NCBI RefSeq assembly: GCF_000025505.1
Contig: NC_013849.1
Location: 1,740,001 to 1,772,000 of the forward strand
Origin: Ferroglobus placidus DSM 10642
Lineage (GTDB): Archaea; Halobacteriota; Archaeoglobi; Archaeoglobales; Archaeoglobaceae
Length of the DNA: 32,000 nucleotides
Direction: 5' to 3'
Shown here: piece after piece, positions 929-28,435 of the stretch
Numbering within the stretch: position 1 is the stretch's first letter
Layout: each line of letters starts with the position of its first letter
Program-made: the position numbers and the translations under genes
Notes under the pieces: model-generated
Database searches by the model: none
What the model was told of the DNA's origin: nothing
What the model saw: only the letters and a program-made list of their open reading frames with translations

Positions 929-1870
929 ATGAAGGTAGCTGAAAAAATTTTGGATGAGCTTAGGAAAAGTAAGGAGCGTGGTTTGCTTCAGTCGGAACTT
1001 GTTAGAAGGATCGGAGCTTCGAAATCAACGGTCTCGGATGTTCTTTCCGAGCTTGAAGGAAAAGGAATCGTCGTGAGAGAGAAGGAAGCTGGAAAATCGC
1101 TGAGGGTTTGGTTAGCCGAGTTTTATCCAAAACCAATAAAAGGTAAGCTGAAACTTGGAATTTTAAAATCCTCCGAGTACGCGTGCCTCTTAAGCAGATT
1201 TAGAGGAATCGTAAGAGTTTACAACAACGCTATGGACTTAACGAGGGATCTCGTTCTCGGAAGAATAGATCTTGCCGCATCTCCTTTCGTAACGCAGGTT
1301 ATGTTTGGCGTAATGATGAAAAACATCAGAATAGTTAGGGGAGTAGCTTACAACGGCTCGGGAGTCGTTTTTGGAGACGAAAAAAATGGAATCTTTGGCT
1401 CGAGCGAACTTTCGGCTATGGAAATAATGCTCAGACTCGTGAAAGACGAAATAGGTTTGAAAAAATTCCGCTACTTCTCATCTCCGGAAGAAATGATCTC
1501 CTCCCTTAAATATTTAAACGGCATAGGTATTTGGGAGCCCTATTTTTCATCTCTGGACAGAGACAAAGTTTTTTTCAAAGACATAATCGGCGATCATCCT
1601 TGCTGCACTCTTGCGGTGAATGTAGAGAGCTTCGAGGAAAACAAAAGCTTAATTAAGGATTTTCTCGCCGACTACGATAAAGCCAAGCCGAACGCTGAAA
1701 AACTCGCTGAAATCTGCGGATTTAGTAAGGAAGATGTTGAGAAGAGTTTGAAAAGCTACATCTTCGTGAAAGAGGTTAGGGAAGATGAGCTCATCGATTT
1801 TTTGAAGCTCGCCAAGATAGAGATTTCGAGGGAGAGCTTAGAGTCCCTCTTTGAACTTCAAAATGTCTGA
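929..1870 (+). CDS. Winged-HTH protein with an uncharacterised ~230-aa C-terminal domain
   Basis: The N-terminus 'GLLQSELVRRIGASKSTVSDVLSELEGKGIVVRE' is a MarR/ArsR-like wHTH. The long ORF is coding-like. I did not recognise the C-terminal domain. Confidence 0.5.
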   Translation: MKVAEKILDELRKSKERGLLQSELVRRIGASKSTVSDVLSELEGKGIVVREKEAGKSLRVWLAEFYPKPIKGKLKLGILKSSEYACLLSRFRGIVRVYNNAMDLTRDLVLGRIDLAASPFVTQVMFGVMMKNIRIVRGVAYNGSGVVFGDEKNGIFGSSELSAMEIMLRLVKDEIGLKKFRYFSSPEEMISSLKYLNGIGIWEPYFSSLDRDKVFFKDIIGDHPCCTLAVNVESFEENKSLIKDFLADYDKAKPNAEKLAEICGFSKEDVEKSLKSYIFVKEVREDELIDFLKLAKIEISRESLESLFELQNV

Positions 1871-2350
1871 AAGCTTCAACACGGAAATTGGATTCAGAGA
1901 ACTTTCTTCTCTGTCAACAGCACAGGAGAAAGCCACGACTTCAGCGTTGAATTTTTTCAACCTCTCCTCTATCGATTTGGCTGATGAGCCAGTTGTGATA
2001 ACGTCTTCAACTACGAGGAACTTCTCCCCACTCCTAACTTCTCCTACGAATTCCTCTTCAGCTCCGTACTCCTTCTTTTTCTTCCTGAAAATCACGTAAT
2101 CTTTCTCCAGATCTAAAGCCACCGCAACAGCTAACGGAACTCCTCCAAGCTCTATGCAAGCTATTTTATCGAAATCGAAGTTAATTTTTGAAATTAACTC
2201 CTTAGCAAAGGTTTTGAGGATTTTAGGCTTCGTCGAAGCTTTTTTGAAGTCTACGTAAACGTTGCTTCTCTTTCCAGACGAGAGAACGAATTCTCCAAAT
2301 TTCACAGCTCCGGCATCATATAGCATCTTCACAAGTTCGAACTTCTCCAT
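1838..2350 (-). CDS. pyrE: Orotate phosphoribosyltransferase
   Basis: 170-aa ORF with 'FGEFVLSSGKRSNVYVD' and the PRPP-binding loop 'FLVVEDVITTGSS'. Confidence 0.85.
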   Translation of the reverse strand: MEKFELVKMLYDAGAVKFGEFVLSSGKRSNVYVDFKKASTKPKILKTFAKELISKINFDFDKIACIELGGVPLAVAVALDLEKDYVIFRKKKKEYGAEEEFVGEVRSGEKFLVVEDVITTGSSAKSIEERLKKFNAEVVAFSCAVDREESSLNPISVLKLSDILKFKEGL

Positions 2351-2965: not shown

Positions 2966-5455
<2,490 letters not shown>

Positions 5456-5605
5456 AGGACTGGCTGACGTACGTTGAGGGAAAAATAACTCTGAAGGAGT
5501 TCGTCGAAAAGTGGAAAAGCGAAGGAAAGGACTGGAAAGCCTACATAAGAGTTTTGAGGTACAGAATTTCCAAGAAGTACGACATAATGCTTAAAGATCT
5601 CTTAC

Positions 5606-6592
5606 TCATGAAGAAGTTTCTTGATTTGGATCTTCACCCTTAACGATTTTTGCGACGAAAAAACCTGAGCAGCGATGCTTGTGCGGATAAAGCCTCTTAG
5701 CTTTTCTCAACTCGGAGCTGAGTTTGACGTCTCCGATTTTCGTCAAAGCCTCTTCTCCGAATTTAACTTCTTCGAGTCTTATTTCGAAGTTTTTTAGAGC
5801 CCAGTCTATTACGAATTCGTTTTCCTCCGGAGTTAGGGAGCAAGTAGAGTAGATTAGCACTCCTCCGGGCTTTAAAGACTTTATTCCCGCTTCGAGCATT
5901 TGCTTTTGGAGGGAGGTGCAGAACAGTATGTCCTTCACCCCTCTGCTCCACTTTCTCGTAGGATCTTTATGTATTATCCCCTCTCCAGTGCACGGGGCGT
6001 CGAGGAGGATTTTGTCTGCTTTAATTCCGAGGTTGTGAAATTTTGCGGAGTTCATTCTTAATACAATCGCGTTCATGACGCCCATTCTGTGGATGTTGTC
6101 TATCAGCGGAGGTATTCTCTCCTCGTTGCCCTCTATGGCAATTAGGACTCCTTTGTTTTTCATCAGCATAGAAATCATCGTCGCTTTTCCTCCCGGAGAG
6201 GCTGCCATGTCCACAACGAGATCGCTCTCTTTCGGATTTAGCTCAATTGGCGGTATGCACGAGCTTTTGTCCATGACGTAGTAGTATCCCATGAGAAATT
6301 CCGGAGTAGCTCCTATGCTGTAAGGTTCCTCAACAACCTCGTAGCAGAAGGGGACTTCCGTCTTATTTAAAACAAAGCCTCTCTCTTCAAGCCTCTCAAC
6401 GAGTTCATCCTCGCTTATTTTTATCGTGTTAACCCTTATGTACTTCGGAACTTTTTCCATTCCCTCGACGAGTTTTGCAGCTTCCTCTTCTCCGAAAATG
6501 TTTACCCACCTTCTGATTATGAACTCGTCGTAGCCGTACTTTTTCGCAAGCCTCTTCGAAAAATCTGTGGAAGGAAAATCAAGAACTCTCAT
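5606..6592 (-). CDS. NOL1/NOP2/Sun-family RNA (cytosine-C5)-methyltransferase
   Basis: SAM motif 'VVDMAASPGGKAT', catalytic 'DAPCTGEG' and 'YSTCSLTPEENE'. Confidence 0.85.
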   Translation of the reverse strand: MRVLDFPSTDFSKRLAKKYGYDEFIIRRWVNIFGEEEAAKLVEGMEKVPKYIRVNTIKISEDELVERLEERGFVLNKTEVPFCYEVVEEPYSIGATPEFLMGYYYVMDKSSCIPPIELNPKESDLVVDMAASPGGKATMISMLMKNKGVLIAIEGNEERIPPLIDNIHRMGVMNAIVLRMNSAKFHNLGIKADKILLDAPCTGEGIIHKDPTRKWSRGVKDILFCTSLQKQMLEAGIKSLKPGGVLIYSTCSLTPEENEFVIDWALKNFEIRLEEVKFGEEALTKIGDVKLSSELRKAKRLYPHKHRCSGFFVAKIVKGEDPNQETSS

Positions 6593-15405: not shown

Positions 15406-15984
15406 ATGCTGCTGCGAACACCTTTAAGGGAGGAGGATTTGCTAAAGCTTGAGGTGGGAGAAGCTGTTTACATTTCCGGAGAAATAATAACTGCAAGAGA
15501 CGCGGCACACGTGAGAATTCTCGAGTTTTTTGAAAGAGGAGAGAAGCTACCTTTTGAGCTGAACCGCTCGGTCGTTTACCACTGCGGACCGATAATAAAA
15601 AAGAATCACGAGTTCAAAGTCATCTCAGCAGGTCCGACAACTTCTGCGAGAATGAACCCCATGACTCCGAAAATTCTCGAAAAAGTGGACTGCTTGGCTA
15701 TAGTTGGAAAAGGCGGAATGAGTGACGAAGTAATCGAAGCTTTAAAGGGGAAGGGAGTTTACCTCGCTTATCCGGGTGGAGCGGGAGCTTTGGCAGCGAA
15801 AGCAATAAAGAGGGTGAAAGCGGTTTACTGGGAAGATCTTGGAATGCCGGAGGCAGTGTGGGTTTTCGAGGTCGAAAACTTCGGACCGTGCATAGTCGGA
15901 ATTGACGCTAAAGGAAACAGCATATACAAAAAAGTTGAGAAAGCCGTCGAAGAGAACTTCAGAAAAATTATATCTCAGCTATGA
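15406..15984 (+). CDS. Class I fumarate hydratase, beta (C-terminal) subunit
   Basis: '[11 protein letters not shown]', 'YHCGP' and 'AGPTTSARM' motifs. Confidence 0.85.
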
Positions 15985-16378
15985 GTCCGTCTATCATTCC
16001 TTTCACGTCTACTGGCGAAGCTCTCTTCCAGAAGTAGTAAAAGACGCTCTCGCACCAGTCGACAACTTCCTTGTTTTCGCTTCGAAACATCGGTGAGTAC
16101 GTGTGGTAGTATTGGAAGTAGACGAGTTTACCGTCGAGAACTCCGAGTAATAAAGGCGTGTCGTAAACTCTGATTTCTATCTTATCCCTAACTATTTTCA
16201 GTTCTTTTTTACTCAAGTCCATGTCGATCAGTACTTGCCTTATCGTTTCGAGTCTGTCTTTTAAAGTGTCTCTGCTCGAAATAACCTTCTCGGAAGCTCC
16301 CTGAAGGTTTAAATTCACCATTAACTTGTATATGTCGTAGTTAATTATTCTGTCAATGTACAATCCGTACTCCCTCAC
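15968..16378 (-). CDS. C-terminal half of a DUF1724-type regulator (separate ORF, GTG start)
   Basis: The C-terminal '[16 protein letters not shown]' resembles the conserved end of DUF1724/FilR1-type regulators. It begins 1 nt after the stop of the upstream wHTH ORF, in another frame. Confidence 0.5.
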
Positions 16379-16379
16379 T

Positions 16380-16781
16380 TTAGAAAAGGTCTTCGAGACC
16401 CTTCATTACTCCATCTAAGAACTCGAATTTTTCTGAAAATCTGAGCACGAGAGGAAATCCGTGCTTTAAGTACGGAGGAAGCATTTTTAAGAATTCTTCC
16501 GCTTTTTTTATCTCTTCTTCGAACTCGAAAGATTCGAGAAGGTTTTCGAAAGTCGTGAGGATCAGATCTCCGTAGGAGCTGATCTCGTAAACTTCTCCTC
16601 GCTTTCTGATCATCTCAAGCTTTTCCAGTCTGCTTAACGCTCTCGAAACTGTAGACTTCGGTGCTTTTAACTCTTCTACAATTTCAGAAAACTTGCACTT
16701 CTTTTTAGACAGCAGTTCGAGAATCTGATACCTCCACGGGTTGAGACACTCTTTTATCAGTTCAAAGCATTTCTCCCTCAC
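16380..16781 (-). CDS. ArsR-like winged-HTH protein (N-terminal half of a DUF1724-type regulator)
   Basis: 'RYQILELLSKKKCKFSEIVEELKAPKSTVSRALSRLEKLEMIRKRGEVYEIS'. A TATA-like 'TTTTATAAAT' lies upstream on the minus strand. Confidence 0.7.
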   Translation of the reverse strand: MREKCFELIKECLNPWRYQILELLSKKKCKFSEIVEELKAPKSTVSRALSRLEKLEMIRKRGEVYEISSYGDLILTTFENLLESFEFEEEIKKAEEFLKMLPPYLKHGFPLVLRFSEKFEFLDGVMKGLEDLF

Positions 16782-18120: not shown

Positions 18121-18504
18121 TTAGTCATAGTCGCAGGAAACGACGGGAATGCTCACTTCGATCTCATCGTAGGGAACGACAGGAACCTTTCTTCTCCTCT
18201 TACCTTTTTTCTCTTCCACGAATTTGACGAGTCCGAGCATTTCGAGAATTTCCAGATCCTTGATCACGTTCCTCCTGTTCCTCCCCAACAACTTAGCCAG
18301 TTCGTAAACGCTTTTCGGATTCTTCTCTTTTATCACGTGCAGAATCTTCAACCTTTCCGGAGTCAGAATTTTTCTGAGCGCTTCGTAACTCTCGAAAACG
18401 ATTCTCTCGAACTCCACATCCTCTCCTTCATCGATTCTCCTCGCTACCTCCAAAAGTTCCTCCCTACTATCTCTCCTCCCGATCTCAATCCTCAACTTTA
18501 CCAT
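18121..18504 (-). CDS. HTH DNA-binding protein, putative antitoxin partner
   Basis: 'LTPERLKILHVIKEKNPKSVYELAKLLGRNRRNVIKDLEILEMLGLVKF' is a wHTH. The ATG at 18504 overlaps the 3' end of the upstream toxin-like frame. Confidence 0.6.
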   Translation of the reverse strand: MVKLRIEIGRRDSREELLEVARRIDEGEDVEFERIVFESYEALRKILTPERLKILHVIKEKNPKSVYELAKLLGRNRRNVIKDLEILEMLGLVKFVEEKKGKRRRKVPVVPYDEIEVSIPVVSCDYD

Positions 18505-18799
18505 ACAGCACCTCCTCCACGATTTTAACATCCTCGAAGAACCTCTCAATCAGCTTTTCGACGCTTTCAAACTCTATTCCCTCCTCTTTATCGAAGAAGT
18601 GTCTGTGGTGTCCTTATCCCCTTTCGTTGTCGTAGCCGAGAACTCTCCTGTAGCTTTCGCCTTCAACGTGAACGTAAGCCATCGAGTACTTCACACCTCG
18701 GGAAAATCCTCGGACTTCGGAACCCTTCAAATATTGATCCGAATAATGTCCCCATGATCGTTGACCTCCTTGTAATCCACGAGCAATTTTGCCATTCAA
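18485..18799 (-). pseudogene. DUF6516-like putative toxin gene interrupted by an in-frame TAA
   Basis: The frame reads '...KYSMAYVHVEGESYRRVLGYDNERG*GHHRHFFDKEEGIEFESVEKLIERFFEDV...'. The stop (18614..18616) sits between the 'YDN' and 'HHRH' halves of the family motif, and the reading frame continues for 42 more codons. Confidence 0.5.
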
Positions 18800-18853
18800 T
18801 ATGTGTTATGTAAGCACACATATTTAAAGCTATCGAGTTTAGGCAGCTCCCCC

Positions 18854-18892
18854 TCGTTATCACCTTAGAACTCGCTAAGGTTTTGGTGCAAA
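18854..18892. repeat. Copy 1 of a perfect 39-bp direct repeat (TCGTTATCACCTTAGAACTCGCTAAGGTTTTGGTGCAAA)
   Basis: Identical to 20196..20234. It contains the hairpin ACCTTAG-aactcg-CTAAGGT followed by TTT. Confidence 0.95.
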
Positions 18893-18925
18893 CCTTTTTA
18901 TTCTTAAAAAAGGGTAAGAGAGGAT

Positions 18926-19930
18926 TTGTGGAGGAAATTGAAGCAAATTGCTGAATCTCTGAACGCCAACATTTCAGATCTACTCGAAACGAAGATTATC
19001 GAGCTAATAGCAGTTTACGAATCGTTTTTGGGAACGGGCCGGGAGGGATTTGAACCCCCGACCGCGGGATTAAGAGTCCGTCAGAGCTTCGTTTCCTTTG
19101 ACCTCCGTGAATTTTACTCCAAACACGAATCGGAGTTCAGAGAATGGCTCTACGGTAGAATGTCCAAGAAATCCGCTGATCAGTATTTGAGCGCCATAAA
19201 AAGGTATTTACCTCACGGAGTTAGCGAACCGAAAGACCTCGACCGTTTAGTGACGAAAACCAAGTACCTCCCCTTAGGAATAAGGAATTTCTTAAACTTC
19301 CTCGAAGATCAGTACTACATGGACAACCTTGGGGGATTCAGCTTCGCCATATGGAGGAAGCACTTACCGACGAAAACCGGAAACAAGAAAGGAGAAAAGA
19401 TCTTCTTGACCGATAAGGACGTCGTGAAATGCTTTAAGCTGATAAAAGAAAAGTGGAACGACGAAGTAACGATAAACCTCTACAAACTCCTCGTATTCTC
19501 GGGGATAAGACTTGAACATGCTTACAGACTCCTCGAAAGCTTCGATAAACGAAAACTGATAATAGAGGGTAAAGTAGCCATGTATCCGATCGAGGAAATT
19601 ACGAAAGGACATAAGAAGGGTTACTTTGCTTTCCTACCGGCGGAATTTGCCAGAAAGTTGGAAAAATATGACATGATGAAACTCGCAGCCTACAAAAGCA
19701 GATTAACTCCTAAACAATGGAAGCCACCGGTTGACAGTCCGGTTTCCCCGATTAGAATTAGAGCGTGGTTCCAGAACTTCGCCATCGAGCATGGAGTGAA
19801 GACCGAAGCTCTTCGCTTCATTGTCGGACATTCCCCGGCAACCGTCGGAGAAGCTCACTACTACAACCTCAAGAAGATCGCTAAGGAGGAGTACAAGAAG
19901 ATCGTGGACAAGTTCCCAATACCACCTTGA
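18926..19930 (+). CDS. int: SSV-type tyrosine recombinase; chimeric ORF of a foreign int(N)-like remnant, attL and int(C) of the resident element
   Basis: 334-aa ORF with a TTG start. The C-terminal 'IRIRAWFQNF...LRFIVGHSPATVGEAHYY' is a tyrosine-recombinase catalytic region. Codons 36-52 are the tRNA-derived att sequence 'GTGREGFEPPTAGLRV'. Confidence 0.8.
   Translation: MWRKLKQIAESLNANISDLLETKIIELIAVYESFLGTGREGFEPPTAGLRVRQSFVSFDLREFYSKHESEFREWLYGRMSKKSADQYLSAIKRYLPHGVSEPKDLDRLVTKTKYLPLGIRNFLNFLEDQYYMDNLGGFSFAIWRKHLPTKTGNKKGEKIFLTDKDVVKCFKLIKEKWNDEVTINLYKLLVFSGIRLEHAYRLLESFDKRKLIIEGKVAMYPIEEITKGHKKGYFAFLPAEFARKLEKYDMMKLAAYKSRLTPKQWKPPVDSPVSPIRIRAWFQNFAIEHGVKTEALRFIVGHSPATVGEAHYYNLKKIAKEEYKKIVDKFPIPP
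19031..19079. repeat. attL: 49-bp copy of the tRNA-Lys 3' part
   Basis: Base-for-base identical to 27663..27711 (GGAACGGGCCGGGAGGGATTTGAACCCCCGACCGCGGGATTAAGAGTCC). Confidence 0.95.
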
Positions 19931-20195
19931 GATTCAAGCTTCCGTTCATTCCTCACAACCAAGAGTTTGAGCTTATTGATCTGTTGATATACGAGGCTAA
20001 GAGGTGGTGGACATATGCAAGCTTCATCACAGTCTTTTTGAGGTCCAATGGCAGTTCCTACGATGAAAACGGTATACCGCAAAACAAGGACTCGAGTCCT
20101 GAGACAAACAGTATACCATTTCTTCCACCAAATCTCAACGAGAAAACCAGAGGAAAACACGCGAACTGCCCTACCTTTTTCCCTTTGTTACCCCT

Positions 20196-20234
20196 TCGTT
20201 ATCACCTTAGAACTCGCTAAGGTTTTGGTGCAAA
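20196..20234. repeat. Copy 2 of the perfect 39-bp direct repeat
   Basis: Identical to 18854..18892. It lies 266 nt downstream of the int stop. Confidence 0.95.
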
Positions 20235-20538
20235 ACTCGACTCTGATCAATATCGATAAACGTGCATGTTGAAAAATATAGATAAATCCATACATATATG
20301 CCGAGAGTCGGAACTAATCTACGAAAATATAATAATAGGCTTAAATATTTTGCAAATTGGCATAAAGGCTCGAATCGGTAAAGCTTTTAACGTTCAGGCT
20401 ATAATAAGCTATTGAACATAAAAGCTATTGAATAAAAATTATAAAATTCTTTTTATATTATTCAACTCTGCGATAAATTTTTAAGAATCTGGCTCTAATG
20501 TTTAATGATCTTGTGTTTGGCAAGGAGGTGAGAACCGG

Positions 20539-20799
20539 GTGTTCGGTAGGTTGAAGCTTGCCTGGAGAATATACAAAGCTTACATGCAGTTCGTCAAGGA
20601 GACCAAGGGTGAAATGACGCTCGTGGACTGGATCAAAGGAGTCATCATACTTTCGGTGCTCGGAGTCGGTGTCGGCTTGCCGATCGTGATAAAGACGATT
20701 CAGAGCGTGAACATCACAGACCCAACGACGTCGCTCGTCGTGAACTTCATTCCAGCTATCGTTGCCGTGGCTTTGCTTCTCGGCTACCTCGGGAGATAG
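20539..20799 (+). CDS. Small two-helix membrane protein, candidate spindle-virus-type major capsid protein
   Basis: GTG start 8 nt after AAGGAGGTGA. Two hydrophobic helices ('GVIILSVLGVGVGLPIVI' and 'LVVNFIPAIVAVALLLGYL') flank the polar loop 'KTIQSVNITDPTTS', which holds an N-x-T sequon. It is the only plus-strand gene in this part of the element. Confidence 0.6.
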   Translation: MFGRLKLAWRIYKAYMQFVKETKGEMTLVDWIKGVIILSVLGVGVGLPIVIKTIQSVNITDPTTSLVVNFIPAIVAVALLLGYLGR

Positions 20800-20835
20800 A
20801 AAAAGCGGCGATTGCAGAGGGCTTGAAGCTTTAAC

Positions 20836-20851
20836 TTCTTTTCTCTTTTTT
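20836..20851 (+). terminator. Oligo-T tract (TTCTTTTCTCTTTTTT) downstream of the 86-aa gene
   Basis: A T-rich run about 35 nt after the stop. Archaeal termination typically uses oligo-T. Confidence 0.35.
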
Positions 20852-20957
20852 GTGCCGGTTGATAATATATTAAATTGAGGAAATATTCTGCAGATCTGCC
20901 TATCAATTCAATAAAAATATTAAAAACCTCGAAGTATTATGCGATTTTGCAACTTTG

Positions 20958-21200
20958 TCAAACCACCTCTCTCTCTTTCTCCCTCTTCCTTAGATGCCGT
21001 CCGTTGAATTTAGCTTCGATCAGATTCAAGAGCTTCTCCACAGCCTCGATAACCTTTTCCGGCTCTTCGCCGTCGAATCTTACGGAGATCTCTACTCCTC
21101 CACCATCCTCATTAATTCCGGCTTTGAGAACGACTTCCCGAACTGGATAATCCTCCTGAACAATCTCCTCAGCTTCTTCACCGGTTTCCTCCCTCCTCAT
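20958..21200 (-). CDS. Hypothetical acidic protein (80 aa), last gene of the element's minus-strand operon
   Basis: Its start overlaps the upstream stop by 4 nt. The opposite-strand ORFs are S/L-rich shadows. Confidence 0.45.
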   Translation of the reverse strand: MRREETGEEAEEIVQEDYPVREVVLKAGINEDGGGVEISVRFDGEEPEKVIEAVEKLLNLIEAKFNGRHLRKREKEREVV

Positions 21201-21364
21201 AGATATCCCCTCCTCCTTAGAAACTCCTCAAGAGCTAAGTTGATAGCGTCGGAGAGCTTCAAGCCGTTTCTTTTGATCGCATTCACAAGCTCTCTTTCAA
21301 TCCTCACCGTAGTTTTTACTCTGTCTTTTTTCTCCAGCTTGAGGAGTCTTTTTTTAGTTATCAT
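21197..21364 (-). CDS. Ribbon-helix-helix (CopG/Arc-like) protein
   Basis: 'VKTTVRIERELVNAIKRNGLKLSDAINLALEEFLRRRG' has the beta-strand plus two-helix RHH pattern. The ATG at 21364 overlaps the upstream stop (ATGA). Confidence 0.6.
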   Translation of the reverse strand: MITKKRLLKLEKKDRVKTTVRIERELVNAIKRNGLKLSDAINLALEEFLRRRGYL

Positions 21365-21555
21365 GCTTGAGCTTCTTTCAACCTCCTCATAACCGTCCAC
21401 TTTGAAACTTCGTAACCTAACTGGGTGAGCTTCCACGCTATCATCTCGTAACTGTAACCTTTAGCTCTCAACTCCTTAGCTAAGGAGATGGGGAAAGTTT
21501 TCGGCTTCCTTCCTCCTCTCTTGGTTAGAAGAATCTCAGCTTTCATTTTCACCAC
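21361..21555 (-). CDS. Small HTH protein (resolvase/Hin-like HTH)
   Basis: 'GRKPKTFPISLAKELRAKGYSYEMIAWKLTQLGYEVSKWTVMRRLKE'. Confidence 0.6.
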   Translation of the reverse strand: MVKMKAEILLTKRGGRKPKTFPISLAKELRAKGYSYEMIAWKLTQLGYEVSKWTVMRRLKEAQA

Positions 21556-21566
21556 CTCTAAAAAAA

Positions 21567-21794
21567 TTAGGGAGAAGAGGTTTCCTCTATTTCTTTGAGC
21601 TTCTTGTTAAACTCTTCAACTCTGGGAATGAACGCTTTTAAGCTTTTCAAATAGTCTAAGTCACTTTTCACGTTCTCTATGATGCACTCCTCTAGATATT
21701 CGGTAAAGTCTTTCCCTGCCCATTCGCAAAACTCTTTTACCAACTCGTACAGCTCTTTCGGAATTTCCAGCTCCACCTTCACCCTTTCTTCCAT
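21567..21794 (-). CDS. Hypothetical acidic helical protein (75 aa)
   Basis: An ORF within the co-directional operon. No motif recognised. Confidence 0.45.
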   Translation of the reverse strand: MEERVKVELEIPKELYELVKEFCEWAGKDFTEYLEECIIENVKSDLDYLKSLKAFIPRVEEFNKKLKEIEETSSP

Positions 21795-21811
21795 ACTACC
21801 ACCCCAAAGAA

Positions 21812-22018
21812 TTAAAGGTGAAGTTCGGCAGTGCTCAAAGCCTTCTTAAGCTCCTCGAAGCTCTCTGAATCCATTTCTAAGGTTATGCTGTTTCCGATTC
21901 TCAAAACTGCTTTGTCGCTGAATTTCTCGACGCTCACGCCCCCTTCATATACATAGACGCCGATCTCCGCCAAACCATCTTTTCCGCTCACTTCCAACTT
22001 CGCCTTAACCCATCTCAT
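21812..22018 (-). CDS. Hypothetical protein (68 aa)
   Basis: An ORF within the operon whose start overlaps the upstream stop by 4 nt. Confidence 0.45.
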   Translation of the reverse strand: MRWVKAKLEVSGKDGLAEIGVYVYEGGVSVEKFSDKAVLRIGNSITLEMDSESFEELKKALSTAELHL

Positions 22019-22236
22019 ACCTTCTCACCTCCTCTCCTTTTTCTTCCTCCCCTTTTAACGGGAGGAGCGTAATCCGGGCATATTTTAGCACGTCCGCAAC
22101 TCACGACAACTTTCCAACGGAAGCAGTAAACGTAACCGGGTGTTTCCGCTTTCGAAGATTCCAAACAGTTAAAGCAATTCTGTTTTGGCTTCTTCTCCCT
22201 CTTCTGCTTCCGAACAACCTTAACGGGAGAGATCAA
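22015..22236 (-). CDS. Basic Cys-rich (zinc-finger-like) protein (73 aa)
   Basis: 'CFNC...C...C...C' flanked by K/R-rich tails ('RKQKREKKPKQ' and 'KRGGRKRRGGEK'). Confidence 0.5.
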   Translation of the reverse strand: MISPVKVVRKQKREKKPKQNCFNCLESSKAETPGYVYCFRWKVVVSCGRAKICPDYAPPVKRGGRKRRGGEKV

Positions 22237-22242
22237 TGAAGC

Positions 22243-22482
22243 TCACCCACTAAGGTCGTATTCGATTTCTTCCGCTTCCTCCACCTTAGGTTTTGATTCC
22301 CGGACCCAGAAAGCACCTACTTCTTTCCATCCGTCTCCTTCCCTGATCACCAATCGAAAATCAGGCTGTGATTTGCTCGATTTCTTCTCGTTCTTGAAGA
22401 GAAACGCCTCCCTCTCCCCCAAAACTCCGAAATCCAGATATCCGGCTAAAAACTTCTTACCGTTTCCTCCCACCTCTACCAC
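22243..22482 (-). CDS. DUF736-like protein
   Basis: 'FLFKNEKKSSKSQPDFRLVIREGDGWKEVGAFWVRES' follows the DUF736 pattern (N..K.s..PDyRi....g.e.GAaW.k.s) as I recall it. The start is more likely the GTG at 22473, 6 nt after GGAGGTG. Confidence 0.45.
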   Translation of the reverse strand: MVEVGGNGKKFLAGYLDFGVLGEREAFLFKNEKKSSKSQPDFRLVIREGDGWKEVGAFWVRESKPKVEEAEEIEYDLSG

Positions 22483-22903
22483 CTCCTAAGGGGTTTTCCT
22501 CCCTTGAGGGAGGAGCTTGAGAGATGAAACGGGAGAAAATATACTCTCCGAACTCTTCAACGCTTCCGGAGAAGACGGGGAGAAGTTGAGAAGCCTTCAA
22601 AAAGGGAGAGGATTCAACTTTTTGAGAAGTGTCATACTCATAGAGTTTGACCTGATCTCCTTCCCTTTCGATGTAAAATAGGGGGACCCTCAAGCATCGA
22701 GCTATTTTTTTGAGAGTTACAGCTTGATAGCCTCTTATCCTCAGATGACCGTTCTTTTCCTCGAATATTGCCACTATTCTTGGACCTACTTCCAAAACTG
22801 CGTCGATGTTTGTTATGACGACCTTTCCGGATCTATCTTTGTAAGGCTGAAGAGCTTCCCAGAGGGTGTTTTCGATGTATTGACCGCAGTGAGGACACTT
22901 CAT
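22457..22903 (-). CDS. Zinc-ribbon protein with a possible PD-(D/E)xK nuclease-like core
   Basis: N-terminal 'CPHCGQ', then 'ITNIDAVLEVGPRIVAIFEEKNG' (D...E-x-K spacing), and a Gly/Arg-rich tail. Its ATG shares one nucleotide with the prim-pol stop. Confidence 0.5.
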   Translation of the reverse strand: MKCPHCGQYIENTLWEALQPYKDRSGKVVITNIDAVLEVGPRIVAIFEEKNGHLRIRGYQAVTLKKIARCLRVPLFYIEREGDQVKLYEYDTSQKVESSPFLKASQLLPVFSGSVEEFGEYIFSRFISQAPPSREENPLGGGRGGRKR

Positions 22904-25551
22904 CAGCTCATCACCTCGGACATGTCCCAGCTCTCGTAATCTCCCTTAGAATCGAATTCTTCCTCCTCTGAACCGGTAAGGAAGTTGACGAATTCGGAAA
23001 ATGAGACAACAGCAGCCCAAGGAGTCTTATTTCCAATTCTAACCTTTCCATATCTCCACCCGAACCTCTCAGCTAAGGATTTGAGGGAATCGACCGGCAG
23101 ATCTTTGAGCACTTTCAAAACCGAGTTTGTTATCACGACGTCCTCTCCTTTCAGGAAAGCCCACGGAATGAAGTTCTCCTTTAGCAAAGCCTCAAGCCTA
23201 TACCTCAAGTCCGGAGCGTAAGAAGTTCCGTTCTCCAACACAACCTCAACCTTAGAAACATGCTTCGAATACCTGGAGTTGATGTCTTCAAGGAGCTTCG
23301 ACCTGATTTCTTCGTTGATTATCTCGGTTATTTCCTCCAAACTTTCTCCTTTATGCTCTTCTTCGATCCACTCCGGAATTTCAAGCTCAGCAAACTCGAA
23401 AGCCTCTCTAAGGAGTTGAGAGGAAAGTTCCCTCCAGTCTTTTTTGAGGAGTTCCGGATTTTCGGAAATTCTCCTGAAAACGAAATACCCTAAAAACCTC
23501 AGGTCGTAAATCCTCGGTAAAACTTCCCTTTCGAACTCTCTAGCCTTATCCTCCTTCACCCTGTCGGAAATCGTGAAGAGAATTCCGATGAACCTCCTTA
23601 GCAAAGCGTCATCAGCCGGGTAAGCTTTGTTTGTCGTGAAAATCATCGGAGACAAAGCCGGCTCTTCGACGTAAACTCCCTGAACGTATCTTCCTCTTGC
23701 GAAGAGCGTTTCAATCGAGGATTTCAGAACTTCCCTGATCGAGTCCTTGGCTAAAACTTCAGCAACCTCGTTTATCAAAACCGGGAAAGTGCTTTCGGAA
23801 ACTACTTTCCCGAATCTTGGAACCGTGTCGATATGGCTTCCTCCCTTCTCCTCCGGAGGGAGATTCCAGATCGCTCTTATTATCTTCCCTAAGGTGGATT
23901 TGCCGGTGGAAGCCGAACCGTGTAGTAAAAGCCAAGGAAAGTGGATTCCGTAAGTTCCCCTTATCTGTTTGATCGCATAAGAGAAAGGAGCGATTATTCC
24001 CCATTTTATGACGGTGGTGAACCTTTCGGCTAAGTGCTTATACCACTCCTCCCTTAGCTCTCTAAGGAGGAGAAGAGCTTTCCTGAGGTCTTCCTTCGTG
24101 AATTTTTCAGCGTTCCACTTTACAGCTTTTATTTCTCCGTCGATGTAGTAGAAACCGGGTTTTTCGAGCTCTCTTCTTATTTCAGCTTTCCCGTTCCTTA
24201 TGAAAGCGATGATCAAAGAGGAGAGAGCATCATCAACCAATCTCTTGTGCTTAACGACAGCTTCAGCTTTAAGCCTTGAAGCTATCGTTTCGAGATCTGC
24301 CGGACCTATTGTTTTCTTCAATAATCCATCGAATTCTATTTCGAACTTCCTGACTCCTCCGAGGGGATCCTCGTAAACGACAACCCTAACAGGACAGCAT
24401 TCAGCTATCAATTCTTTGTAAACAATTCCTCCGTTCTTTGAATCTTCGTAAGCTCTGGCAATTATCCCCTTTCTCGGATTTGCGACGTAGTAGAGCTTTC
24501 TTGAGAAGTCAATCAAGCTGAAAATGGAGTCTCGGAAGGGGGAAGATCTTCCCAGCTTCTCCTCAAGCCTCCTTATCAGTTCTAAGGATTTTTCCTCTCC
24601 GAAGAGCTTTTCCGCTATTTCTTGTAAACCTGTCTTACCTTTCAACTCTTCTTCACTCGGTGGATTTCCCCTTAGTCCGTAGGTCCTATCCAAAACATAG
24701 ATTCTGAGGTCTCTTTCCTCATCCTTTTCCGAAAGCAGATCGACGATTTTCTTCGCCGATTTGTAACTTATTCCGGCTTTCCTCAACCAGCCCGTGAGGA
24801 AGAGAATGATGTAATTCCTGAATCCAGGTCGATAAATCGGCTTGAGCAAATTGACGATTTCCAGAATTTCGGATTCGGAAAGCTCTCTTTCATCCTTGGA
24901 CGTCAAAGAATCTTTGGCTGAAATTTCTTCTGTTAATCCCTCTTCTGGAAGAGTCTCGTTCCTCTCCAGAATTCTAAGGAGGGTGAGGTATTCCTCCCAG
25001 CTCAATTCAGCTATCTTTTCAGGTTTGTTAACGAAACGATATTGTTTCCCGGAGGGATGAGGGGAAGGAGGAGCGACGACGAAACCTCCTTCGGCTCTTA
25101 TGTCGATCCCTTCTCTTATTCCTATCCTGTTGTGGAAGAGTTTAGGATCCGGATCCTTAACCCTTAGATAATAGTGGAAACCTTTCCCGGTCTCAACTAC
25201 CCAGGTGTTGATGAACTTCTCGTATAGGTTGCTATCCGATTCGTAAAGTTCGGCTAAGAAGTCGGATAAAACCTCTCTGTTGTCGAAATCGATCACTGCC
25301 AAATTTCCGGAAACGCTTCCGGTTACGATGGCTATTCCGATCTTGTTTCCCTTCCTTATGGCTTCAAACTGCTCTGGATTTTCAAACCAGCTCCTAACCT
25401 CTTCTAAGGTGGGAGGAGAGAGCTGGTATTTCTTCCAGTCCACTAAAGCTGGCTTTCTCGATCTGCCATCGGGTAACCTGATTAAAGCGACGGGGATAAC
25501 CGAAAATCCTTCCCGGAGGTATTCCTCAGCAGCTTTTAATAACTCCTCCAT
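22903..25551 (-). CDS. Replication protein: bifunctional primase-polymerase (prim-pol) fused to an SF3/D5-like helicase (pRN1 ORF904-like)
   Basis: 882 aa. N-terminal 'GFSVIPV', 'AVIDFDN', 'GFHYYLRV' and 'GIDIRAEGGFVVAPPSPHPSGKQYRF' are prim-pol motifs. It also has Walker A 'LLLHGSASTGKST' and Walker B-like 'FPVLINEV'. GGAGGT lies 9 nt upstream of the ATG. Confidence 0.9.
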   Translation of the reverse strand: MEELLKAAEEYLREGFSVIPVALIRLPDGRSRKPALVDWKKYQLSPPTLEEVRSWFENPEQFEAIRKGNKIGIAIVTGSVSGNLAVIDFDNREVLSDFLAELYESDSNLYEKFINTWVVETGKGFHYYLRVKDPDPKLFHNRIGIREGIDIRAEGGFVVAPPSPHPSGKQYRFVNKPEKIAELSWEEYLTLLRILERNETLPEEGLTEEISAKDSLTSKDERELSESEILEIVNLLKPIYRPGFRNYIILFLTGWLRKAGISYKSAKKIVDLLSEKDEERDLRIYVLDRTYGLRGNPPSEEELKGKTGLQEIAEKLFGEEKSLELIRRLEEKLGRSSPFRDSIFSLIDFSRKLYYVANPRKGIIARAYEDSKNGGIVYKELIAECCPVRVVVYEDPLGGVRKFEIEFDGLLKKTIGPADLETIASRLKAEAVVKHKRLVDDALSSLIIAFIRNGKAEIRRELEKPGFYYIDGEIKAVKWNAEKFTKEDLRKALLLLRELREEWYKHLAERFTTVIKWGIIAPFSYAIKQIRGTYGIHFPWLLLHGSASTGKSTLGKIIRAIWNLPPEEKGGSHIDTVPRFGKVVSESTFPVLINEVAEVLAKDSIREVLKSSIETLFARGRYVQGVYVEEPALSPMIFTTNKAYPADDALLRRFIGILFTISDRVKEDKAREFEREVLPRIYDLRFLGYFVFRRISENPELLKKDWRELSSQLLREAFEFAELEIPEWIEEEHKGESLEEITEIINEEIRSKLLEDINSRYSKHVSKVEVVLENGTSYAPDLRYRLEALLKENFIPWAFLKGEDVVITNSVLKVLKDLPVDSLKSLAERFGWRYGKVRIGNKTPWAAVVSFSEFVNFLTGSEEEEFDSKGDYESWDMSEVMS

Positions 25552-25711
25552 TCCTGATTACCTCCCTCAGTAAGCAGAATTCGGAGAGGAAGTAACCGCA
25601 AAGAGTAGAATCGGTTCGACAGATCGAGGGAAGATCCGATAACTTTATAACGGTGCATTTCCTCCTTTTCTTAGGGATCAGCACACTTCCAGGGGTTTGC
25701 GACCTTCTCAT
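25526..25711 (-). CDS. Hypothetical small Cys-containing ORF bridging the RHH and prim-pol genes
   Basis: It fills the 156-nt gap, and its start overlaps the RHH stop (ATGA). No motif, so it may not be translated. Confidence 0.3.
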   Translation of the reverse strand: MRRSQTPGSVLIPKKRRKCTVIKLSDLPSICRTDSTLCGYFLSEFCLLREVIRNGGVIKSC

Positions 25712-25917
25712 CCTTGATCCTCCCTTATTTTTTCAAAATCGACTCCGAGAAACATGGCATAGTGTTCGATTGCTCTTCTTAGAATCTCAGAAACGGATTG
25801 ATGGGCTATAGGCTTCGAATATTCTCCTCTAAGGATGAGTTCGAGGAGTTTAGCGTGTTCTGGGTAAACTGTGGCTGTGATCTGGATTTTGTTCCACTTG
25901 GTTTGGATCCCGACCAT
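25708..25917 (-). CDS. Ribbon-helix-helix (CopG-like) regulator upstream of the replication gene
   Basis: 'IQITATVYPEHAKLLELILRGEYSKPIAHQSVSEILRRAIEHY' fits the RHH pattern. GGTGA lies 7 nt upstream of the ATG at 25917; the track starts at the GTG at 25923. Confidence 0.65.
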   Translation of the reverse strand: MVGIQTKWNKIQITATVYPEHAKLLELILRGEYSKPIAHQSVSEILRRAIEHYAMFLGVDFEKIREDQG

Positions 25918-25932
25918 TTTCACTCACCTATT

Positions 25933-25999
25933 GAAGTTACTCACACTTTGAAGAAATTTGGATAACAATATTTAAATACTTTTCGATGTGAGTAACTTC
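25933..25999. promoter_or_regulatory. Divergent promoter/operator: a 13-bp perfect inverted repeat (GAAGTTACTCACA / TGTGAGTAACTTC) flanking the TATA box TTTAAATA (25971..25978)
   Basis: The repeat arms are at 25933..25945 and 25987..25999. The TATA box lies 22 nt upstream of the ATG at 26000. Confidence 0.55.
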
Positions 26000-26572
26000 A
26001 TGAGTCGAGAAACTATAGGGTTGATTGTTGAAGCTTTATCAGAAGGTCCTAGGGGGTGGAAAGAGTTAAAGGAAAGAACTGGTCTTTCAGATGGGACTTT
26101 AGCCAAGTATTTAAAAAAATTAATTGAAGAAGGTCTCATATCAGAAGAGATTGATAAAAAAGATCGAAGAAAGAAAATCTACAAGCTAATACCCACTGAA
26201 AAAACGTTTGAGTTATCTTTGCAAAGAGTTATTGCTAAACTATTTTTGATTTATTTAAGGTCAGTTTTGGAAGAAAATGAAAAGATGGAAGACCTTGAGA
26301 GAAAAACTGGTAAAATTGTTTTGATCTGCCTCTTTGGAGGCGATAGAGGTAAGGAAATCTGCAGAATTATGGTGGAAAACTTCCAAGAATTTATGAAGGA
26401 CTTAGAGAGCGATATTCCTGAACGTTACAATAGAGAGTTTAATGAATTATGGGAAGACTTCTCTAAAGAAATAATGGAGTTGTTTAAATCTGAACTCAGA
26501 ATAGATCCCAAACTTCTCGATCCTAAGAAGTATTGGATAAGGTTCGACATAGATACTACTGAAGATGACTAA
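26000..26572 (+). CDS. Winged-HTH (MarR/ArsR-like) regulator with a C-terminal helical domain
   Basis: 'GPRGWKELKERTGLSDGTLAKYLKKLIEEGLISEEIDKKDRRKKIYKLIP'. The ATG at 26000 is favoured as a leaderless start; the track begins at the GTG at 25988. Confidence 0.7.
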   Translation: MSRETIGLIVEALSEGPRGWKELKERTGLSDGTLAKYLKKLIEEGLISEEIDKKDRRKKIYKLIPTEKTFELSLQRVIAKLFLIYLRSVLEENEKMEDLERKTGKIVLICLFGGDRGKEICRIMVENFQEFMKDLESDIPERYNREFNELWEDFSKEIMELFKSELRIDPKLLDPKKYWIRFDIDTTEDD

Positions 26573-26614
26573 AATCCATTTCAAAAATTTTGTATAAAAT
26601 AATTTTTTAAATCT

Positions 26615-26892
26615 GTTCCACGGGAATAACAGAGCTTTATTCCGAAAACTAAGGGAGAATATTGCCTAGATTTTAAAACAACCTATGTTCCGCAATATGG
26701 AACCTTACGGAACAAGGTTATTTTCCCTCAGTTTTCGATTTGGAGTGATTTGATGGGTTTTTTGATGTTGTGTTCCGCACCTTATTAGAGGATACCCCAA
26801 ACTTTTTGATGAGTTCACAATTCTTTACGGAACAGTGGAACAATGGAACACTAAGAATGGGTGGAACCTACGGAACAACGGAACATTGGAAC
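26615..26892. repeat. Iteron field: 9 direct GGAAC(A) copies and 3 inverted GTTCC copies in a non-coding 436-bp gap
   Basis: Direct GGAAC starts at 26699, 26709, 26829, 26837, 26845, 26863, 26872, 26880 and 26888. Inverted GTTCC starts at 26615, 26687 and 26772. TACGGAACA occurs three times and TGTTCCGCA twice. Confidence 0.85.
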
Positions 26893-27008
26893 ATTTTAAT
26901 TCATATTTTATTAAATTAAAAAGAAAGAAACTCTCTCTCATCCCTTAGTGTTCGCATGCCAAACTTGAAATCCCAAACCCTTTTAACATTCTTGATGAAT
27001 TAAGAAAC

Positions 27009-27227
27009 ATGCAAGAAGCGAAGGTGAAGGAAGTCATCTTCCTTGTCGAGGAGACGGATGAAGGATTTACGGCGAGGGCTTTAGATTACTCGATCTACAC
27101 TGAAGCCGATACGCTTGATGAGCTAAAGGAAATGATCAAGGATGCCGTGAAATGCCATTTTGATGAAGAGGAGAGACCGAGAATCATCCGACTTCACATC
27201 GTTAAGCAAGAGGTTTTGACGTTATGA
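27009..27227 (+). CDS. hicB: HicB-like antitoxin
   Basis: 'VIFLVEETDEGFTARALDYSIYTEADTLDELKEMIKDAVKCHF' matches the HicB N-terminal fold pattern. It overlaps hicA by 4 nt. Confidence 0.7.
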   Translation: MQEAKVKEVIFLVEETDEGFTARALDYSIYTEADTLDELKEMIKDAVKCHFDEEERPRIIRLHIVKQEVLTL

Positions 27228-27466
27228 AGCTTCCGAGAGACATTAGCGGTCTGGAACTTGCGAAACTCCTTAGGAAATTCGGTTACGAAATTACAAGACA
27301 GACTGGAAGCCACATTCGTCTTACTACCCGTTTGAAGGGAGAACATCACATCACGATCCCGAAACATAGAAATCTCAAACCGGGAACGTTAAACGCCATT
27401 TTGAAGGATGTTGCCGATCATTTAAGAATCGATAAAAAGGAACTGATACGGGAATTGTTCGGATAG
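27224..27466 (+). CDS. hicA: HicA-family mRNA interferase toxin
   Basis: 'LELAKLLRKFGYEITRQTGSHIRLTT...HHITIPKHRNLKPGTLNAILKDV' carries the HicA/YcfA signature, including GSH and P.H..L..GTL..IL. Confidence 0.8.
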   Translation: MKLPRDISGLELAKLLRKFGYEITRQTGSHIRLTTRLKGEHHITIPKHRNLKPGTLNAILKDVADHLRIDKKELIRELFG

Positions 27467-27503
27467 TCGCAACTTTTATTTTTATTCACACGTATGAATC
27501 AAT

Positions 27504-27662
27504 ATGCCCCGTCAAAGTCAGGACAAGGTGAAATTAACATTAACCATAAATAAAAACGTTCTCGAACGAGCTAAGGAATTAATCCCCAACCTTAGCGCCT
27601 TCGTCGAAATGAAGCTTCGAGAATACGTAATTTTGGCAGAACACGGGTTATTCGACGAAAAT
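27504..27662 (+). CDS. int: int(N): N-terminal fragment of the element's partitioned integrase (RHH-like), reading into attR and the tRNA
   Basis: 'VKLTLTINKNVLERAKELIPNLSAFVEMKLREYV', then the att-encoded 'GTGREGFEPPTAGLRV'. Codon 54 starts exactly at att, the same phase as at attL. Confidence 0.75.
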
Positions 27663-27711
27663 GGAACGGGCCGGGAGGGATTTGAACCCCCGACCGCGGG
27701 ATTAAGAGTCC
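27663..27711. repeat. attR: 49-bp repeat (4 nt plus the 3'-terminal 45 nt of tRNA-Lys)
   Basis: Identical to 19031..19079. Confidence 0.95.
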
Positions 27712-27740
27712 CGCGCTCTACCTGGCTAAGCTACCGGCCC
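27667..27740 (-). tRNA. tRNA-Lys (anticodon CUU), 74 nt, no encoded CCA
   Basis: The hand-folded cloverleaf is GGGCCGG / GCTT-GAGC / CGGGA-CTCTTAA-TCCCG / GGGGG-TTCAAAT-CCCTC / CCGGCCC-G. The anticodon loop CT-CTT-AA gives CUU. Confidence 0.9.
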
Positions 27741-27798
27741 ACTAAAAACTAAGCTCGTTTCTCGATTTATCAAGTTTTTGGTAATTGAAAAAGCCCTG

Positions 27799-28435
27799 TC
27801 AACTTAACCACCTCAGATGATTGTAATAGAGCATGAAGAGTTTGCAGAATAGATTCCAGTTTTTAATTGGATTTTTAGTGGAAATCGAACAGAAGAACAG
27901 CTTAACTCTCTGTTTAAATGAGCTGAACGTCGCTTCAACCAGACTTCTCTTTCCGAAAGGTTTCATGCTTAAATTCCAAGCCTAAACTTTCTATTGCTTT
28001 TCTCAGCCATGGTGCTTTGTCTATCAAAAACTTGGGTTCGTTCTCGCAGTAATTAAGAACTTCTTTGACGAAAGACCTTGCTGTAAGAATGTTTCTCGTC
28101 GTGTAAACCCTCATTAAAATCAGCTCGTTCCTTTCAACGTCTACCGCGGCAAAAATGTAGAACTTCTTTTTGTTAGCTTTGACAATCGTTTCATCTATTG
28201 CAACAAGATTTCTCCGCTTCTTCTCAGTAGAAATTGGTAACTTCTCTTCAAACTTCTTTATCCATTTCCACACAGCCGTATGGGAGACCGGACGAAACTC
28301 CGAGAGAATTTTAACCGTTCTCCTCGTCGAAGAAGTTTGAACGTAAGTGGCTACGCCAAGAATTCTAATGTCGTTCGGAACTCTTTCCCTCTCAAACAAC
28401 TCAAGCTCCTCTATAAGCTTCTTCAACTTCATCAA
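27799..28435 (-). pseudogene. IS6-family DDE transposase, frameshifted
   Basis: 'LVAIDETIVKANKKKFYIFAAVDVERNELI...FLIDKAPWLRKAIESLGLEFKHETF', then a stop. Another frame continues 'GKRSLVEATFSSFKQRVKLFF...', the conserved E-containing C-terminus. The frame switch is near 27950..27956. I could not define terminal inverted repeats. Confidence 0.7.

Follow-up and report, generated by a model that had tools for sequence, protein, structure and literature searches.

In the 'suicidal' integrases of the Int-pT26-2 type, which occur in Thermococcales and Archaeoglobales (PMC7253208), the attachment site (att), which is the 3' part of a tRNA gene, lies inside the open reading frame (ORF) of the integrase gene (int), so that integration splits int into an N-terminal part, int(N), and a C-terminal part, int(C). 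A split int likewise flanks the captured element in the partition of SSV1 and SSV2 and the 'gene capture' of Sulfolobus, as these are cited (She et al. 2001, 2004) in PMC3718332 and PMC8371274. Here we analyse an element of this kind, 8.6 kb in length, that is integrated at a tRNA-Lys(CTT) gene of Ferroglobus placidus AEDII12DO (contig NC_013849.1, positions 1,740,001 to 1,772,000 of the forward strand; this whole stretch of 32,000 nucleotides is called the window below). At its left end, the int(C) of this resident element is joined in frame, through att, to the relic of an int(N) of a different subfamily. We consider it probable that an earlier integration, the decay of its element into a relic and a recent second integration gave this hybrid as a by-product.

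Integrases of this family were surveyed by Badel et al. (2020), whose 73 sequences included 14 from Archaeoglobales. No multiple or tandem integration at one site was found in that survey, and its authors stated that tandem insertion that reconstitutes an integrase had never been observed, yet proposed it in their model (PMC7253208). F. placidus was not mentioned in this context in the literature that we searched, which did not extend to the supplementary table of Badel et al. The present locus shares with their hybrid model the joining at att of N and C moieties of different origin; hybrids in the model come from homologous recombination between elements, whereas here the hybrid stands at attL and would result from site-specific integration beside a relic. 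A further parallel is offered by the lone intN fragments of Sulfolobus islandicus, which are orphan remnants that overlap tRNA genes and mark past integrations; for the tRNA Glu-TTC gene the listing even shows an intN fragment together with an integrated plasmid (PMC3718332). That host is a crenarchaeon, however, and an in-frame fusion with the int(C) of another element is not described there.

The features on which the argument rests are the following.

18908..19030, + strand: int(N) relic of another subfamily, probably from an older element; 5'-truncated, with homology secure from 18911, which equals residue 14 of a P0024-type module
18926..19930, + strand: chimeric ORF, 334 aa from TTG 18926 or, alternatively, 330 aa from TTG 18938
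19031..19079: attL, a 49-nt copy made of the 3' part of tRNA-Lys(CTT) (46 nt) and 3 flanking nt; translation GTGREGFEPPTAGLRV
19080..19930, + strand: int(C) of the resident element, with the core-binding and catalytic domains of an SSV/pT26-2-type tyrosine recombinase
27504..27662, + strand: own int(N) of the resident element; complete module of the ribbon-helix-helix type that has its ATG and a promoter
27663..27711: attR, identical to attL
27666..27741, - strand: tRNA-Lys(CTT), intact (69.4 bits), the integration target

The perfect 49-nt direct repeat at 19031-19079 and 27663-27711 marks both ends of the element. The tRNA-Lys(CTT) gene, the sole tRNA gene in the window, has its 3' 46 nt covered by att and is restored whole at attR. 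The ORF of the int(N) that belongs to the element continues through attR into the tRNA gene, as far as 27752. When this int(N), one att and int(C) are joined, a 352-aa ORF results, as the earlier note on this DNA had stated, which is collinear with the full-length integrases P0006, P0011 and P0012. The C-terminal integrase part belongs to PF16795 (E 3e-39, residues 159-329) and to the integrase family phrog_5127 (E 1.6e-36), and the family-invariant residues R195, K230, R279, H302 and Y312 are all present. In a tblastn comparison, the chimeric protein was 31.6% identical to t26-1p of pT26-2 (GU056179.1; 97% coverage, residues 5-328, E 1e-24), which lies above the threshold used in the network of Badel et al. 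for relatedness to Int-pT26-2 (>25% identity over 60% of the protein). The catalytic domain also matches the SSV1 integrase structures 3UXU/3VCF/4DKS (E 8e-6) and is homologous to that of the SSV1/SSV2 integrases, but the SSV integrases form another clade (~25% identity), and the N-module here appears, judging from its sequence, to be of the ribbon-helix-helix type (Arc/CopG/CcdA-like, in which two helices follow a beta-strand). The resident int(N) matched Pfam CcdA with an E of 1.3e-5, above the cutoff, and is 76% identical in nucleotides to the int(N) of locus L005. Relatives of the integrase were not found in IMG/VR by single-protein or profile search. The element is thus a textbook integrated element with a suicidal integrase of the SSV/pT26-2 type.

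An int(N) relic to the left of attL

The 41 codons from position 18908 up to attL, whose frame is shut upstream by a TAA at 18905-18907, read KRVREDLWRKLKQIAESLNANISDLLETKIIELIAVYESFL. The earlier note had described the codons before attL as homologous to, yet distinct from, the element's own int(N). The pairwise resemblance that can be seen by eye is not significant by itself, since BLASTP of the relic against the resident int(N), with the att peptide removed, gave no match at E<=100. The homology itself was borne out by three other analyses. An exhaustive phmmer search of 1.84 billion representative proteins with the translation of 18908-19078 returned exactly two matches, P0024 (E 2.4e-8, 27/49 identical residues, 55%) and P0025 (E 7e-4). 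Both are int(N) fragments that begin MPRKPSGRIDVCLRI... and run into tRNA genes read in reverse, P0024 into tRNA-Ala(GGC) in locus L017 and P0025 into tRNA-Ser(GCT) in locus L018, and they are int(N)-attR junctions of other elements. When a profile of the relic, P0024 and P0025 was compared by hhalign with a profile of seven other int(N) sequences, the resident one included, the match had a probability of 97% (E 1.2e-10), while in this alignment the relic subfamily and the resident int(N) were only 16% identical. Finally, a hidden Markov model (HMM) trained on nine int(N) sequences, the relic left out, was scanned against the six-frame translation of the window, where it found significant matches in two places only: one was the resident int(N) (E 6e-28), the other the relic (E 1.1e-6; positions 15-47 of the 53 in the HMM). 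The relic also showed a weak match to the PHROG of Arc-like repressors (E 0.0045, profile positions 11-46 of 50).

Because phmmer, hhalign and the relic-free HMM all point the same way, the segment is a genuine int(N) in spite of the negative BLASTP result, and one from a different subfamily than the resident int(N): the relic groups with P0024 and P0025, the resident module with those of L005 and L008. Hence the int(N) of one element is joined via att to the int(C) of another.

The hybrid ORF is open over its whole length, and the codons before attL are in frame with att and int(C), as had been noted before. Translation can start at TTG 18926 or TTG 18938 only, and the product therefore lacks 18-22 of the ~53 N-module residues, including the conserved MPRKP start and the entire beta-strand, while most of helix A and all of helix B are retained. 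A GGAGG at 18930-18934 precedes TTG 18938 with a spacer of 3 nt. Both versions have been annotated, as a 330-aa protein (P0001) and a 334-aa protein (P0026). The earlier description of an 'apparently intact chimeric integrase' thus goes too far: the 334-aa frame from TTG is open, but the native ATG and the beginning of the module are gone. In AlphaFold models of the chimera and of full-length P0006, two helices form the N-module, and the folded core follows after a linker of low confidence that att encodes. In the AF2 model of the chimera, the N-module helices have a predicted local distance difference test (pLDDT) score of ~60, linker residues 31-55 score <50, and the core is folded from about residue 60.

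Upstream of the starts, one further feature may bear on expression.

18889..18905, + strand: tentative B recognition element (BRE)/TATA remnant of the old int promoter, GCAAACCTTTTTATTCT, resembling GCAAACCTTATTTTATTCT upstream of int(N) in L017

Its TATA-like motif, at 18895-18902, is similar to the int promoters of L017 and L018; it stands about 24-31 nt ahead of TTG 18926 and would tentatively put the transcription start near 18925. If the resemblance is due to homology, the TATA box may have been kept while the start region and 13 codons were lost by a small deletion (~49 nt). A MAFFT alignment did not pair the 18889-18905 motif with the promoter motifs of L017 and L018.

The in-frame fusion itself calls for no special explanation. 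Every int or int fragment that we saw carrying this att reads it in one frame, as (G/A)GREGFEPPTAGLRV; the set comprised the two junctions in the window, P0006, P0017/L024, L023, L025, L005, L008, L011 and L004. Since this frame is shared and the stretch encodes only a flexible linker, the hybrid is automatically in frame, as is the product of every serial integration at this att. Other attL junctions that have been called as ORFs extend 30-47 codons into non-homologous flank (P0017, P0007). The open frame and the in-frame fusion therefore carry no weight as signs of selection; int(C) is merely that of a recently integrated element, whose att copies are identical at 49/49 positions.

Precursor state, parallel junctions and the proposed history

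Genome contigs were scanned with the 35-nt core of tRNA-Lys, which gave 14 loci in metagenome-assembled genomes (MAGs) of Archaeoglobaceae; the source genome was not among them. In L009 the tRNA-Lys gene is unoccupied and lies ~20 nt from the end of a NOL1/NOP2/Sun-like gene. Exactly between the corresponding two genes, its close relative L011 carries a lone int(N) of ~190 nt that is promoterless and 5'-truncated, and L013 has a shorter int(N) remnant at the same position. Truncated int(N) tails are also present in L014 and L003. Among the closely related MAGs, L009, L013 and L011 form a decay series (unoccupied, short tail, lone int(N)). A lone int(N) beside an otherwise unoccupied tRNA-Lys gene is the precursor state for a hybrid such as the one in the window. 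The earlier note had taken such a segment next to an unoccupied tRNA-Lys gene as a mark of ordinary chromosomal sequence; this was mis-specified, because it is the very state that serial integration predicts, as L011 shows.

Two metagenome contigs hold what appear to be further junctions of a relic, att and int(C). One of them, L023 (Ga0164311_10001836), has a decayed int(N) of the same subfamily as the relic in the window, which reads ...SSRINVCPCIKV up to a stop codon and then ...SITDLIEPKLIELIALYEAGFLS. The end of this int(N) shares its frame with the tRNA-Lys att, which is the same one as in the window, and with an int(C) that is only 41% identical to that of the window. The other, L030, has at 5409-5700 an int(N) that lacks ATG and is interrupted by an in-frame TAG; next come the att of another tRNA (PGPGFEPGTMRSSA) and, in the +1 frame, an int(C). 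By its sequence it could be either a disrupted N-att-C junction or a decayed full-length int.

The flank that carries the relic shares a repeat with the resident element.

18849..18895, + strand: 47-nt repeat copy 1 (family D3), directly upstream of the relic
20191..20237, + strand: 47-nt repeat copy 2, in the resident element 260 nt beyond the stop of int(C); contig L001 of Logan ends within it

The copies are identical at 45/47 positions (96%) with an exact core of 39 nt, they are spaced by 1342 bp, and they bracket the whole chimeric gene. The 3' end of copy 1 runs into GCAAACCTTTTTATTCT. Both hold a palindrome, ACCTTAG-N6-CTAAGGT, which was found in these two copies only among the window and the fetched loci. 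The repeat had no match in Rfam and no notable fold, it was absent from all fetched loci, and its core was absent from IMG/VR. The block ties the left flank to the same mobile-element pool as the resident element, and our guess is that it is an operator. Homologous recombination at this repeat was considered as the origin of the hybrid and rejected, since crossing-over there yields a gene order other than the observed one.

The history that we favour for the locus is as follows. The tRNA-Lys(CTT) gene would have been used at least twice by SSV/pT26-2-type elements with att inside the integrase gene. A first element, with an int(N) of the 'MPRKPSGRIDVCLRI...' subfamily, would have integrated at tRNA-Lys and later been lost by deletion or decay, leaving the 5'-truncated relic and perhaps <=~3 kb of accessory DNA; we infer deletion because site-specific excision would have taken int(N) away completely. 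A second element (8.6 kb, with prim-pol, HicAB and an int(N) of the other subfamily) would then have integrated by recombination between its internal attP and the attB in the tRNA gene, which would have placed its int(C) directly downstream of the relic and created the 330-334-codon ORF as an incidental product of in-frame fusion. This second integration was probably recent, since the att copies are identical and both the ORFs and the own int(N) are intact. The first element seems to be essentially gone: housekeeping genes (dapB, fumarase) are found at 13.8-16.0 kb, that is from 3 kb left of attL, so that it can contribute at most ~3 kb of flank, and no third att copy, degenerate ones included, was found in the window, which agrees with the earlier remark that no far-end att of the older element is visible. 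With two att copies, the window thus holds a relic and one element, not a tandem of two complete elements with three. The proposal of the earlier note that a related element had left an int(N)-att junction into which the present one integrated is well supported by the tests on the relic, by the state of L011 and by the junctions of L023 and L030.

Four points weigh against this history. Neither the body nor the far-end att of the first element survives, and we infer its former presence from the relic alone. The anatomy does not prove the order of the integrations, which leaves room for a reversed order as considered below. Among the more distant MAGs returned by the genome scan, no homologue of 16.8-19.0 kb of the window was found. 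Lastly, a near-identical 47-nt repeat stands beside int(N) sequences that are very divergent.

Activity of the hybrid and rival explanations

We expect the activity of the hybrid to be at most partial and similar to that of Int(C), because its N-module is heterologous and truncated, its starts are non-ATG and its promoter is uncertain. The earlier note's suggestion that the hybrid could provide integrase activity during the integrated state thus finds no support here. In the SSV1/SSV2 integrases the N-terminal part mediates multimerisation, and Int(C) alone recombines weakly in vitro (PMC8371274). The resident element would accordingly depend on an integrase supplied in trans for efficient excision. 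Such trans-complementation (pTN3 Int/TKV4; SSV2; PMC8371274) bears on how captured elements with a split integrase may still excise; in those cases the complete integrase comes from a second, episomal element, whereas here a chromosomal relic offers at most a truncated N-module in cis.

It is nonetheless conceivable, though we think it unlikely, that the hybrid is expressed and is a working integrase, so that the relic's N-module re-arms the split integrase and the element can excise itself without superinfection. The 330-334 codons are open, the linker, core-binding and catalytic regions are whole and the family-invariant residues are kept, and the weak activity of Int(C) alone could be seen in the same light. 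Against low activity speak, in addition, the retention of both N-module helices, the TATA-like motif upstream of TTG 18926 together with the GGAGG before TTG 18938, and the mixed history of N and C moieties, whose hybrids have been proposed to be active (PMC7253208; PMC8371274) and whose natural interchangeability was argued by Badel et al. 2020. The missing 18-22 residues, which take the MPRKP start and the beta-strand of the ribbon-helix-helix with them, the availability of TTG starts only and the spacing of just 3 nt between GGAGG and TTG 18938 count in the opposite direction. Openness and frame are expected without selection, as the read-through of 30-47 codons in P0017 and P0007 illustrates. 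The reconstituted 352-aa episomal Int was absent from a collection of 15 billion proteins, so there is no assembled circular form on record, which is weak negative evidence.

A more general version of this idea, to which we give slightly less credence still, sees orphan int(N) relics beside tRNA genes as 'landing pads' by which suicidal integrases are re-armed on arrival. The hybrid would then be transcribed from the TATA-like motif, multimerise through its two surviving helices and catalyse attL x attR excision, and the element would escape without a helper. If true, this would be a natural answer to the 'suicidal integrase paradox'. Excision by attL x attR recombination would restore the original int on the circle, with the relic staying beside the tRNA gene, and for this reason the hybrid is not itself a route to new mobile integrases, in contrast to the homologous-recombination model of Badel et al.

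As to the history, it is improbable but conceivable that the order was the reverse, with the relic's element entering attL later, or that both elements once stood in a true tandem of which the left one was mostly deleted. The attL offers a complete 49-nt target, and according to Badel et al. (PMC7253208) an integrated element can be targeted anew at either of its att sites; the 96% identity of the 47-nt repeat shows that the left flank and the resident element hold recently related sequence. However, the left element is nearly gone, with a truncated int(N), while the right one is intact with identical att copies, and it is less parsimonious that the younger of the two decayed faster. The relic-first state is, moreover, common, as lone relics at otherwise empty tRNA-Lys genes are present in L011, L013 and L014.

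That the segment left of attL is ordinary chromosomal DNA with a coincidental likeness to int(N) and a chance read-through, which would suit the negative BLASTP comparison, the common occurrence of read-through ORFs at attL and our estimate that a stop-free run of ~40 codons arises by chance in ~10% of cases in this composition, is effectively refuted by the phmmer matches (both of them int(N) beside tRNA genes), the hhalign and HMM results and the presence in L023, at this att too, of a relic that belongs to the same subfamily.

The resident element, its flanks and the place of the locus in the family

The remaining features of the element and its left flank are listed here.

19080..27662: body of the resident element, with small ORFs, prim-pol/helicase, winged helix-turn-helix (wHTH) protein, HicB-like/HicA pair and its own int(N)
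22903-25551, - strand: primase-polymerase (prim-pol)/helicase, 882 aa
25988-26572: wHTH protein
27009-27466: HicB-like/HicA pair at the right end of the element, directly before the int(N) promoter
18121..18549, - strand: HVO_A0114-type helix-turn-helix (HTH) gene (PF25212, E 1e-26; phrog_11214, a viral family, near full-length, E 1.5e-23)

The window has a G+C content of ~44%, and that of the F. placidus genome is 44.1% (PMC3236036). In Logan, the prim-pol gene was found in two contigs only, whose breaks fall at the 47-nt repeat and within the HicB-like gene, while look-ups of exact proteins (the 334-aa ORF, the 330-aa ORF and an enoyl-CoA hydratase) matched zero contigs. The HicA toxin gene (PF07927, E 2.8e-15) overlaps the upstream 72-aa ORF by 4 nt; this ORF has no Pfam match, and we take it to be the HicB-like partner. 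The break of Logan contig L001 at 27129 suggests that another copy of the HicB-like region exists elsewhere in the genome. After copy 2 of the 47-nt repeat follows an AT-rich non-coding stretch of 300 nt (20238-20538), within which tandem 16-nt repeats, AAGCTATTGAAYAWAA, stand at 20406-20437; this stretch is a candidate origin or promoter region of the element.

To the left of the relic, the HVO_A0114-type HTH gene has homologues on haloarchaeal and bacterial plasmids. It is of an accessory type, perhaps toxin-antitoxin-like, and nothing else of the older element but this gene and the relic may have survived. On plasmids of Roseomonas, a DUF6516 family protein is among the features annotated where the HTH protein matches; the small ORFs at 18599-18863 had no Pfam match, DUF6516 included. 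Further left, two adjacent ORFs at 15968-16781 (- strand) match an HVO_A0261_N HTH domain and, weakly, the middle domain of FilR1-type regulators, and look like one regulator gene split by a frameshift. They sit at the border between the housekeeping genes and an AT-richer accessory stretch (G+C 0.39 at 16-17 kb).

On the right side, within ~60 nt of the 5' end of tRNA-Lys, lies a split gene for an insertion sequence (IS) transposase of the IS6 family (27799-28435, - strand), in which a 166-aa N-terminal ORF (NF033587, E 1e-32) is followed, in another frame, by a C-terminal ORF of 55 aa. The 63 nt at its 3' end (27816-27878) are 78% identical to L023 1814-1875, which adjoins the int(N) relic of that contig. 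The pyrE gene lies ~3 kb to the right of tRNA-Lys in five MAGs (L003, L005, L007, L010 and L016), but in the window (1838-2350) it is found 17 kb to the left of attL; its relative orientation is unchanged. The tRNA-Lys neighbourhood has thus been rearranged between lineages.

With this locus a known and predicted phenomenon gains a further instance, a predictable by-product of integration that calls for no new mechanism. For annotation, it means that two elements make up the 330/334-aa 'integrase' of F. placidus, and that the N-terminus of the hybrid is unsuitable as a native one for phylogenies or expression constructs. Elements with SSV-type integrases destroy their own int upon integration, and how they persist and diversify is under discussion (Badel et al. 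2020; PMC8371274). The present locus, together with L023, L030 and the relics in the MAGs, indicates that the same tRNA-Lys gene is reused, that decayed int(N) relics persist, and that later arrivals fuse to these relics, in frame when the frame of att is conserved, which provides material for testing the interchangeability of N-modules and the activity of hybrids.

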